From Zootoca vivipara (lineage: Eukaryota): 64,000 bases of DNA. Every line of letters begins with the position of its first letter. The first letter of the stretch is position 1. The position numbers and the translations under genes were made by a program. The notes beneath the pieces are model-generated. The model made no database searches and was not told the DNA's origin. It saw only the letters and a program-made list of their open reading frames with translations. The stretch covers positions 49,786,001 to 49,850,000 of the forward strand of contig NC_083276.1 in NCBI RefSeq assembly GCF_963506605.1. The letters are read 5' to 3'. Shown here in pieces: positions 22,081 to 48,215 of this stretch.

Positions 22081-22123
22081 CAAAACTCTGCTTTTTTTAA
22101 AAAAAACTAACAAGAAAAAGGAT

Positions 22124-22278
22124 AAAAAAATTCCTTCAGTAGCACCTTAAAGACCAACTAAGTTTATATTTTGGTATGAGCTTTCGTGTGCATGCATATA
22201 AACTTAGTTGGTCTTTAAGGTGCTACTGAAGGAATTTTTTTATTTTGCTTCGACTCAGACCAACACGGCCACCTACTG
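22124..22278 (+). mobile_element. PLE fold-back mini-insertion with truncated hammerhead
   Basis: 46-bp perfect inverted arms (22124-22169, 22196-22241); same tail as the 34448 copy; TSD TAACAAGAAAAAGGAT (22108-22123, 22279-22294). Confidence 0.85.
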
Positions 22279-23284
22279 TAACAAGAAAAAGGATGCAACA
22301 GGACTGCAAATGTTCTTTCACCATGGAGAAACGGAACTTAAATATATGTATGAGTAATATAGTTGTTTCCACTTTTTCATATTTGCAAATAAATGTCATG
22401 CAAACAGCAGTAAATTATCAGTCTTTATATCGCCAAGCAAGAGCTAGTTTAAGTAGATAGAAACTAATTAGTCTTGTTTTAGATGCAAGACCAGTCTTTG
22501 TCATGTTGGGGGGAAATAATTGATTATGCTGGTGGTTTCTTGTCTTGTTGTAAACAACCCTGGGGTTCCTTGTGTTTACTGAAGGCTATTCATTGAGAAG
22601 ATAAGTAATGGTGAGCAACAATCCTAGTAAGACACCTGCCCACATTTATTGATCCTTTTCTAAATGCAAAGTTGCATGTGCAGGGTATTTGATGTGTTGG
22701 GTTGCAAATTTTGGATGAAGCAATGTTGGGTCCCAGTGAATCTAGCCAGTATTCTGCATGGACAGAATGTGTGTTCTAGAGCTCTTTACATAATTTTTTT
22801 GCAACATGCATGGTATTCCACAGCAGATATTGGTGTTTCCTTGGGAGATGAGTTTATATAGACAGGGCTTTTTAAAGCAAGAACTTTAAAAACTACTTGA
22901 TTAGAAAAAATATCTCCTGAACAATGAACCATATGGAACAATGCTATTTCATTTATTTATACAACCATGATTAGAGGCAAATTTATAAAACTGTGATCTA
23001 AATACCATATGGCACCCACCTGTTTATAATTTCATTCGTTATAAAAAGATATTTGGGACTCAGAGCTCAGCTGCGCTTTCATTAGCACATGGGAACTGCT
23101 TCCTTATGTTGAAATTCCACTGTGACTCAATACATGCTCATAACCAGGAGCCATTTGAATCACTCTTTCCCACCTGAATATATGATCTCCCTCCCTTCTG
23201 GCTCTGTAATATCCCAATAACAAGCTGCATAATTGGCTTAGATTAACAAATTTACAGGAGTTGCATGGCACCATAAAATAGTAG

Positions 23285-23482
23285 ATTCAGGTAGGTAGCT
23301 GTGTTGGTCTGACGCAGTCGAAATAAATAAAAAAATAAAAAAATTGTCCTGTAGCACCTTAGAAACCAACTAAATTTGTTCTGGGTATAAGCTTGCGTGT
23401 CCATGCACACTTCTTCAGATACACGAAAGCTTATACCCAGAACAAACTTAGTTGGTCTCTAAGGTGCTACTGGACATTTTTT
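23285..23482 (-). mobile_element. PLE fold-back mini-insertion, second subfamily, degenerate hammerhead
   Basis: Reverse-orientation tail; inverted arms; minus-strand CTGAAGA...GCAA (GAAA mutated); 13-bp TSD CATAAAATAGTAG (23272-23284, 23483-23495). Confidence 0.8.
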
Positions 23483-25017
23483 CATAAAATAGTAGTTCTC
23501 ATGCTGTTCCAACTGATTATGTTGAGCCTTCTTTACCGGTGGGGCATCAAAATTGTTATGTATCACCAATACATAAGCATGGTGCATCTAAATTACTAAT
23601 AAAGCCTGAAAAAGGGATAGTGTCCAGGAATGAATATCTATGCAAAACAGCATTGGAAAAGAGATACTTTCTTCTATTGCTGCTGCTTGTTACTTTGGGT
23701 AATGGCTGACATTCAGTCTTTAGATCATGTGCTGCATCCATTTCTCTTACACTGAGGAAAGAGTGCTGCACCTTTTTATAATGTGCAATTCAATTCTTGT
23801 CATCAGGGGAAACACCTGTTGCATTTGCTGAAGTTGGCTCATGCCACAATAAATGTGTGCATCTTTAAAGATGCTGCGGGACTCTCTGTTCTTGCTGCAC
23901 ATGGTGAAAACTGTTTCCTGTTTGAAATTTCTAAGATGAAAGTGCTAATACATTCAGGGGAGGGAGAGGGAGAATGAGTTAGGCCAAGAGAGCAACAGGG
24001 CAAATGGTGATGCCTTGTGGGCCTAACAATGCAGCTGAAGATGAAGCCCTTGGTAAAAATGCTAACTTCGGCTTCTCTGCATTTCCTAGTCTATATTAAT
24101 CAGATCACTCCCGACATGATAAATTACCAAGCAGCCAGTTCTGCTGTGGAATCAGCACCTGCTGCTTCTGGGACTAGAAAAGAGCCCCAGCCCCTGGAAT
24201 TTTGCCCTTGCCGCAGAATTAAAACAGATGACTTGTGTGGAAGAGGAAGCCAGGAAAAAAGAGCATGTTGGCATGTTCTACCTGAAAGGCTCAGCACATG
24301 ATCATCCTAGGGCTTGCAAGTGAAGCAATAGCTGACAAGTGTGGTAGACTTACATTTCTGAAAAGGATGAGCCCCTCATTTTATATGACAAAGATGTACA
24401 AAGGGAGGACGTCAGGTGCTAAGAAATATTTAGATGGTTTCTAGTACTTGGGGCTGGTTTTGTTCACATAAAGCAGAAGGTCTATGGGTGTAGTTAATAT
24501 CTACCTCACTCAAGTCATTCCAACAGTATCCAATGAAAGATGCTAGATTTAGCTAAAGCTTGAATGCCCTTGTGATAAGGATAGGATTTGCTAATAAGAT
24601 AGAACTCCTGAAGGTCTTCCTTGCTTGAAGATGGTCACCCTTTCCTGATGTATTCTCAGCAGATGGGTAAGTGCAGTGAAGTTGTTCGCGGTGAATAGCT
24701 TCAGAGAGGAGAAACCACAAGGACCCCCCCCCCTCCTTTTTTCCTTGTTGTCCACTAGCTATGTAGTAATACTGCATTAGTTACTGGACTGGAGTCTTCT
24801 TGAAATGAAAAAAACTGTTCGCCTTCTCTGTGCCATGCATAATTTTATAAACTTCTGTCATGTCACTCCTTACTCGTCTTTTCTCATTTGTGTAATATAA
24901 TTTGCTTAAATACAGCTTCTTACATTTATAGCTGTGATTCGCATAAACTGGGATTTTGGTCACCAAAATCTATAGAAGAGTGGCTTCCCAAAATGTAGAT
25001 GTTAATGATGGAGAAAG

Positions 25018-28856: not shown

Positions 28857-28954
28857 CTTTTAAATAAATGTTGTCAGCTGCCTTTTCGATGAAAAGATAG
28901 GGATACAAATCTTCTAAACAAAAATTAAGCTGCCTCCCTCTTCCTCTCTTCCAG

Positions 28955-29442
28955 GTGGTCCAGAATATGGGGCTTCTGGGGAGGATGCTCTAATCCGAAT
29001 CCAAAGGCTGATGGCTGAGGGTGGCATGACTGCTGTGGTCCAGCGAGAGCAAAGCACCACCATGGCATCCATGGGTGGTTTTGGCAACAATATCATTGTG
29101 AGTCACCGGATCCACCGCAGTTCTCAAACTGGCACTGAATCCATTGGAACAGATGGTAGCTCAGCTCAGCCGTCCACTTCCCAGGAGCTGTTATCCGAGC
29201 TTGAAGGACGAACCCTTTCTGAGTCCATGCAGGTGACAGAGCGTGGCTTGAGCCCACGGACATCCTCTGATGAGGTGGAGGGAGAAGAAGCTAGTGGGCA
29301 GAGCCTGTCAGAGCAGGCTCAGTCCTCGATGGACACTGAGGGACCAGTTGAGTACAGTGACCTAAGTAATAATAACCATCTTCCTGACAATACCAACTTC
29401 TACAGTAATGGTGGCACCAGTGGAGAATCTCGGAACAGGTAG
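28955..29442 (+). CDS. AMBRA1: AMBRA1 last coding exon ([59 protein letters not shown]...ESRNR*)
   Basis: ctcttccag acceptor ending 28954; in frame with ORF 29011-29442; conserved AMBRA1 motif and terminal RNR, then TAG at 29440-29442. Confidence 0.95.
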
Positions 29443-34230: not shown

Positions 34231-34447
34231 AGGAGGAGGGAACTGGGAATACTAAGCTGTTGTGGAACTCTGGTTAAGAGCTGGCAAAAAGGGGAAACTA
34301 CTTAATGGTGAAAAAGGCAGAGTAGAACCCTCTTAGGCAATGACTGGAAAAAGGTTGGCTAGAAACTCCTTAAAGCCCCAGTAGAAGATGTTCAGAGGCC
34401 AAGCCAGCACTGGGCCCAAATTTTTGAACATGAACAAGAGTAAAGAT

Positions 34448-34684
34448 AAAATAAAAAAATTCCTTCAGTAGCACCTTAAAGACCAACTAAGTTTTTATTT
34501 TGGTATGAGCTTTCGTGTGCATGCACACTTCTTCAGATGCACACTTCTTCAGATGTGGTATCTGAAGAAGTGTGCATGCACACGAAAGCTCATACCAAAA
34601 TAAAAACTTAGTTGGTCTTTAAGGTGCTACTGAAGGAATTTTTTTATTTTACTTCGATCCAGACCAACACGGCTACCTACCTGT
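34448..34684 (+). mobile_element. Penelope-like (PLE) fold-back mini-insertion with hammerhead ribozyme
   Basis: Perfect 91-bp inverted arms (34448-34538 and 34560-34650); tail ending CAGACCAACACGGCTACCTACCTGT; 15-bp TSD AACAAGAGTAAAGAT (34433-34447, 34685-34699). Confidence 0.85.
34556..34597 (+). ncRNA. Minimal type I hammerhead ribozyme (PLE-associated)
   Basis: Stem I UGGUAU/AUACCA; core CUGAAGA plus an extra A; palindromic stem II GUGUGCAUGCACAC; GAAA; 4-nt palindromic stem III AGCU; predicted cleavage after C34591. Confidence 0.8.
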
Positions 34685-34705
34685 AACAAGAGTAAAGATG
34701 CAAAC

Positions 34706-48029: not shown

Positions 48030-48215
48030 CCTTCATGTGCATGCACATGAAAGCTCATACCAATGACAAACTCATAGCTGCCAAGTTCTCCCTTTTTTAA
48101 GGGAAATTCCCTTAAACTGAATAGGCTTCCTCGTGAGAAAAGGGAAAACTTGGCAGCTATGGAGAAACTTAGTTGGTCTCTAAGGTGCTACTGGAAGGAT
48201 TTTTTTTCTTTTGTT
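48030..48215 (+). mobile_element. PLE remnant interrupted by a MITE
   Basis: GTGCATGCACATGAAAGCTCATACC followed, after the MITE, by AAACTTAGTTGGTCTCTAAGGTGCTACTGG. Confidence 0.75.
48073..48161. mobile_element. 89-bp MITE, TIR CATAGCTGCCAAGTT
   Basis: Perfect 15-bp TIRs; 8-bp TSD GACAAACT/GAGAAACT; inserted in a PLE remnant. Confidence 0.85.

Follow-up and report, generated by a model that had tools for sequence, protein, structure and literature searches.

The 64,000-nt stretch of Zootoca vivipara DNA analysed here (the window) contains, at 34448-34684, a 237-bp fold-back insertion that carries neither an ORF nor an upstream box. Its arms (34447-34538 and 34560-34651) are each 92 nt long and 100% complementary, or 91 nt without the 1-nt overlap with the target-site duplication (TSD), in agreement with the perfect 91-bp inverted arms of the initial annotation, and are separated by a 21-nt spacer. 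With parent positions numbered from the first base of hammerhead stem I (+1), the tailless inverted arm on the minus strand (34448-34538) corresponds to parent +3 to +93 and has its 3′ end in a U-rich tract; it keeps an intact hammerhead core, as had been noted, with only 2 bp of stem I, which had been described as lost. Adjoining it on the same strand is a 16-nt reiteration of parent +3 to +18 (34539-34554), from which we infer re-priming of the cDNA end close to the 5′ terminus of the template. A 3-nt junction filler without parental counterpart follows on the plus strand (34555-34557), and its G34557 constitutes an extra G at -1. The tailed arm (34558-34684, plus strand) corresponds to parent +1 to +127 and shows no mismatch to the pLTR of the parent copy at locus L040, the match extending 3 nt into the right TSD. 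The sequence between the two 3′ end sites, found in this arm only (34652-34684, plus strand, ~34 nt), is the PLE 'tail', as delimited by 3′-end mapping and by the description in portions of PMC11167929. The plus arm beginning at +1, the G at -1 and the short reiteration on the other arm form a break-point signature.

The insertion is flanked on the plus strand by a perfect 15-bp direct repeat (34433-34447 and 34685-34699), and the first 3 nt of the right copy are microhomologous to the parent. In another individual (X2) and in a related organism (X14), position 34432 is joined straight to 34685 and the repeat occurs singly; a third contig (X8) reads into the element, and a fourth (X1) breaks at the insertion site. 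The duplication is a true TSD, as first annotated, and the empty allele with its single copy therefore identifies the focal insertion as recent and polymorphic.

The architecture of the focal copy is already published. Head-to-head inverted pLTRs, a one-sided tail of 30-40 bp and a TSD form the PLE pattern described in passages of PMC3846280 and PMC8557442, with the general PLE architecture set out in part of PMC8969392, and a hammerhead motif is ordinary for Penelope-like elements. As is characteristic of EN+ PLEs, the focal copy is inverted, 5′-truncated and head-to-head, with a 30-40-bp one-sided tail and a TSD of the variable-length kind. One of the two origins originally proposed, an extremely short inverted PLE insertion, accordingly describes the locus well, in that it joins the 3′ ends of a 3.0-kb element head to head. 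The single focal locus is ordinary, and it is the family-level statistics that carry the weight.

Further stumps lie elsewhere in the window. A second fold-back stump of the same PLE family (22108-22294) is flanked by a TSD of 15-16 bp. This TSD agrees with the focal one at 11 of 15 letters, and the right flanks are also alike; no common TSD motif was apparent by eye in 42 sampled TSDs. An older fold-back stump in the opposite orientation (23272-23495) has a 13-bp TSD and a U at the cleavage position. The PLE stump at 48030-48215 is split by an element of ~100 bp, which we take to be hAT-MITE-like; it shows terminal inverted repeats and an 8-bp duplication that is imperfect. An open frame on the plus strand (28918-29442) has a translation that we assume to resemble the C-terminus of AMBRA1; the focal insertion lies ~5 kb beyond this AMBRA1-like frame, and the stumps at 22-25 kb would lie inside the AMBRA1-like gene.

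Parent element and hammerhead motif

A parent element encoding RT and GIY-YIG, whose collection had been recommended, was found at L040, where copies form a tandem unit with a spacing of 3,000 nt; the interval holds coding sequence for RT and GIY-YIG, which is frameshifted here. The GIY-YIG domain scored 24.7 bits, above the Pfam cut-off of 22.6, and RVT_1 (E = 8e-7) scored 29.3 bits, just below its cut-off of 29.6. The translation shows a CX2-5CxxC linker between RT and EN and two cysteines between GIY and YIG. This linker defines Neptune/Nematis in passages of PMC8557442, and its presence would place the parent, a 3.0-kb RT + GIY-YIG Penelope-like element, with that type rather than with Poseidon. 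The tail is predicted to pair with a stretch just 3′ of the hammerhead (L040:5765-5825), and this pairing may correspond to the stem-loop reported at the start site of the Anolis element.

The family comprises thousands of stumps in the genome. For example, the genome contains 12,056 exact matches to a 37-mer from the arm, 19,454 to a downstream 30-mer and 8,225 to the older-subfamily version of the latter. Short arms, with a 5′ end at -10 or later, make up 45/100 of young-subfamily and 76/86 of older-subfamily arms, and this difference in stump share (45% versus 88%) could be due to long copies being lost with age or to the strength of the promoter.

The focal motif, in the form typical of the family, occupies 34558-34595 of the plus strand and is a minimal type I hammerhead with a 4-bp stem I, whose cleavage is predicted only. 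Since the arm is 100% identical to the RT + GIY-YIG parent, the Penelope origin first assigned to it holds. Sections of PMC4209133 describe the minimal type I hammerheads of metazoan PLEs as having a helix I of 4-5 bp, a long helix II, an unpaired base between 9 and 10.1, a G10.1-C11.1 pair and a palindromic 15.2-16.2, and already report both solo motifs and opposite-strand motif pairs 100-700 bp apart. On the plus strand of the focal copy, the core CUGAAGA (34562-34568) is followed by the extra A after A9 (34569), by stem II (34570-34583), a perfect 14-nt palindrome which, like the junction reiteration, had been missed, by GAAA (34584-34587) and by the AGCU palindrome of stem III (34587-34590), with G10.1-C11.1 in place and a predicted cut after C34591. 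The core nucleotides are thus intact, as initially claimed. The motif had been located inside one of the perfect arms, which is true for most of it, but its first four bases sit in the spacer.

A minimal-hammerhead descriptor gave one match in the window, 179 in the fetched DNA and none in 1.07 Mb of shuffled DNA. The 6-bp stem I of the initial annotation exists in the focal copy, because filler bases T34556 and G34557 add two pairs, but it is not a family trait: stem I is 4 bp in 143 of the 179 motifs and in the parent. The suggested check against Rfam hammerhead models failed to recover the motif, in that no hammerhead family was among the 46 matches at E<=1, and only sub-threshold miRNA-hairpin matches were returned.

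In a plus-strand read-through transcript, the two arms are predicted to form a hairpin of -170 kcal/mol that would bury the motif, which supports the earlier suggestion that the antisense arm would sequester the ribozyme. For two strands consisting of the motif only, the predicted minimum-energy form pairs via the 14-nt stem II palindrome and not via stem III, so that stem II pairing may compete with the stem III dimer.

Variation among subfamilies falls on N7 and H17 and not on the core (15/81 at the free N7 versus 10/860 at non-CpG core positions), although the subfamilies are too close for covariation and copies decay at CpG. After insertion, the essential G12 decays at the CpG rate (18/64 in the older subfamily). 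The motif looks maintained in active lineages and neutral once inserted; in the focal copy the ribozyme is a passenger, and the copy itself is likely a dead end. At four of 30 loci (L185, L187, L194 and L202), an amplified source lineage with long upstream sequence carries U for C at the cleavage position.

Ends of the copies and pairing of the arms

Parts of PMC11167929 describe an Anolis PLE protein that, in purified form, both cuts and extends the two strands of DNA; its reverse transcription begins at two internal positions of the RNA, one at either boundary of the tail, with uncut RNA as the template. Copy ends were surveyed here in 186 arms (all 100 listed young-subfamily arms and 86 of the 100 listed older-subfamily arms), which are first-listed matches on one contig. 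Mapped 3′ ends fell into two groups, +87 to +100 (45/100) and +125 to +137 (46/100), with none at +101 to +120; of the remainder, 7/100 continue into the ORF and 2/100 end earlier. The two groups are combined within single insertions, and 42 of 44 mini hairpins (two of these pairs belonging to one nested structure) consist of one tailed and one tailless arm. TSDs are 12-16 bp long in 33/42 hairpins, and the arms meet through microhomology in 19/44, bluntly in 6/44 and with filler in 19/44. The two arms agree at subfamily markers in 12/14 and 23/24 pairs, and private variants are often common to both. These observations are best fitted if synthesis was primed at both nicks on one RNA or on RNAs of the same source, although markers common to both arms could also reflect conversion between arms.

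Shared variants would also be expected if the cDNA started at the tail site folded onto a palindrome close to its own 3′ end and then served as its own template, a form of self-priming proposed in passages of PMC3846280. The identity of the focal arms, the microhomology at 19 of the junctions and the 14-nt palindrome in stem II all fit such a fold-back, as do the 13/41 pairs in which the tailed arm is the longer, the focal copy included. However, a tailed cDNA that primed itself should always reach furthest 5′, and it cannot give a longer tailless arm. The tailless arm extends further 5′ in 28/41 pairs (p=0.028), so that in the majority it holds sequence absent from its tailed partner, which counts against fold-back. 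Moreover, the clustering of tailless ends at +87 to +100 holds across the whole sample of arms, with or without a partner, which is what a priming site would produce. Fold-back is therefore an unlikely general origin, although it may explain the minority with a longer tailed arm, among them the focal copy.

As to the 5′ ends, the longer arm of the pair ends at -3 to +4 in 25/44 hairpins. Across the 186 arms, 49 had 5′ ends within -5 to +5, 7 within -40 to -11 and none at +35, the cut site; all arms were anchored 3′ of that site, so that starts there would be caught, and 5′ ends assigned to the range from -40 to -170 are not reliable. Truncation is not random and shows a sharp preference for the first base of stem I. 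The same point emerges genome-wide: among 14,338 copies with an intact +1 to +32, 3,983 have a non-parental base at -1 and 10,355 the parental one, against 482 copies with a non-parental base at the +7 control. Among the matches listed, the base at -1 is G in 70/100, versus 12/100 at the +7 control (Fisher p=2e-17). This extra G is mostly single, with a second G in only 3 of 19 inspected G copies, of which one is a long copy and several have an ambiguous G. Upstream, a TATA-like 8-mer, mostly with one mismatch, begins at -31 or -30 in 52/61 long arms, a count made without a chance control for a one-mismatch box; in young subfamilies the commonest box is the one-mismatch form TACATAAG (35/46), in copies that are related and not independent. 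A spacing of -31/-30 is optimal for TATA boxes in mouse promoters, as given in part of PMC1779604, and extra G residues are attributed to copying of the cap in passages of PMC4038843.

Taken together, the sequence patterns lead us to infer that +1 is the start of a capped RNA and the extra G a copy of its cap, although the enzyme can also add such a G terminally, and microhomology to the target or to the partner arm can likewise yield one. The TATA reading is not general, because D. virilis Penelope has a TATA-less, internal promoter (described in part of PMC2377424). Three other ideas on the break point and its extra G were rejected. A start at -3 is at odds with a G in only 2/100; templating of an extra UG by fold-back of stem I predicts a -2 base that was seen by eye in ~6/19 G copies, which is no better than chance; and a subfamily with G at -1 is not the main cause, since the parental upstream sequence was present in only 1/19 G copies.

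It is also conceivable, if quite improbable, that +1 is not a transcription start and marks instead a stall of the enzyme at the edge of the folded ribozyme, or the end of a spliced or processed RNA. The coincidence of +1 with the edge of stem I would be accounted for, as would the pyrimidine tract with CAG that precedes +1 in some subfamilies, and helix I is where an intron terminates in Drosophila virilis (reported in a section of PMC4209133). In addition, no RNA start at +1 was found in raw reads from one study (~6% of each run, tissue unspecified). However, the 4-bp stem is weak, with a predicted fold z-score of about -0.5, the junctions have no common upstream exon, the youngest subfamily lacks the AG, and neither a single extra G nor a box at -31 is expected from a stall. 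A capped start at +1 therefore remains the preferred reading.

Transcription of the ORF was almost nil in the runs examined, with a depth of 0-12 at the ORF start. RNA reads span the cut site at full depth with no pile-up among the ends listed, coming mostly from copies inside other transcripts, and 79-92% of reads continue into unrelated sequence (one study). In runs X21-X23, depth is in the hundreds to thousands over a stump-sized stretch (L040:5711-5841) and near zero at the ORF start, and head-to-head joints occur in the reads. Depth confined to stumps, together with these joints, therefore indicates that hairpin stumps are transcribed within host RNAs.

The other origin initially proposed, a retrozyme-like family of non-autonomous mini-elements that are processed by their ribozyme and spread as units, is largely refuted and now very improbable. 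In its favour, the copies are ORF-less, TSD-flanked and abundant with an intact motif, they vary at N7 more than at the core, four junction types recur 2-3 times among the 44 pairs and animal retrozymes derive from PLE pLTRs (parts of bioRxiv 10.64898/2026.07.22.740005). Against it, the exact focal junction has only two occurrences in 1.44 Gb, one of them in another subfamily, and hence is not amplified; 39 different combinations of ends were counted in the 44 sampled hairpins; tandem units are lacking, and none of the 186 arms starts at the cut site; reads cross the cut site at full depth; G12 decays at the CpG rate after insertion; and the antisense arm is predicted to block folding. Genome-wide, <=289 copies have a non-parental base before +35, and of 30 inspected by eye only ~6-7 were true junctions, most of the 30 being point mutants. 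One locus (L035:2820-5242, G000:C1:2777300-2779750) does hold four head-to-tail units of 598 nt, each an internally deleted PLE with a hammerhead. This array fits the tandem definition, but was rejected as an amplified retrozyme because the four copies and the deletion junction occur at this one locus only.

Proposed origin and relation to known elements

We consider it likely that the focal copy is a recent, polymorphic one-step insertion of two head-to-head PLE 3′-end pieces, copied from uncut RNA at both nicks and probably by run-off at a capped end. Under this model, the enzyme would copy uncut RNA from the two internal start sites, one for each nick of a staggered cut, with one RNA, or one source locus, supplying both arms. 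The cDNAs would run off the likely capped 5′ end of the RNA at the first base of the ribozyme, and the two cDNA 3′ ends would then be joined via microhomology or filler. An enzyme engaged on the promoter-proximal pLTR would meet only ~95-130 nt of template and would hence leave ORF-less stumps, and long copies would arise from the downstream pLTR of a tandem transcript.

For the family as a whole, we lean towards a large share of the PLE insertions in this genome being integrated 'strong-stop' products, made at both nicks by a dimeric enzyme from an RNA whose capped start is the hammerhead's first base. Since the sites of initiation are internal to this RNA, reverse transcription would copy only its first ~95 and ~130 nt; the leading copy would usually reach the cap, and both copies would be joined head to head. 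The origin of inverted and tailed PLE structures is described as undefined in passages of PMC8557442, and the family statistics bear both on this question and on what PLE hammerheads do in vivo. A search of openly accessible papers brought up none that ascribes PLE stumps to run-off.

If this model is true, one rule explains the asymmetry of the tail, the inverted pLTR and the masses of solo minimal hammerheads, as well as why long insertions come only from tandem copies, and in vivo the ribozyme leaves the templates intact. The genomic copies also yield sharp predictions that the existing in vitro system can test, namely the base at which the RNA starts, a G derived from the cap, a pair of primers for each insertion and templates without cuts. 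Stumps number in the tens of thousands, and many are perfect hairpins and some polymorphic; they enter host transcripts as potential double-stranded RNA and are mis-scored as miRNA-like hairpins.

Two well-known processes resemble parts of the proposed mechanism. L1 twin priming likewise uses two primers from one staggered cut, but produces inversions whose arms do not overlap, whereas both arms here hold the same sequence. Retroviral strong-stop DNA is a short cDNA that runs from an internal primer to the 5′ end of the RNA, as proposed here, with the difference that here the short product would integrate.

Among Penelope-like elements, Pen2a_Av shares the head-to-head pLTR, the tail on one arm, the TSD and the palindrome or microhomology at the junction (described in part of PMC3846280), but in the focal family member both arms are cut back to 95-130 nt and contain no ORF sequence, and the Pen2a_Av passages of PMC3846280 and PMC8557442 report no fixed break point, extra G or run-off origin. 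The element studied in vitro, PAc of Anolis carolinensis (Frangieh et al. 2024; parts of PMC11167929), belongs to the Poseidon clade, whereas the present parent is of Neptune/Nematis type as judged by its linker, and its long ORF begins after the tail and not in stem II. The animal non-LTR retrozymes, described in portions of bioRxiv 10.64898/2026.07.22.740005 as head-to-tail tandem units with a motif in each, are similarly non-coding, carry a type I hammerhead and derive from PLE pLTRs; in contrast, the focal insertion is head-to-head and non-amplified. Finally, the focal motif matches the consensus of the hammerheads of Cervera and de la Pena 2014, as given in sections of PMC4209133, from which it differs in the perfectly palindromic 14-nt stem II and in a predicted dimer that would form through this stem.
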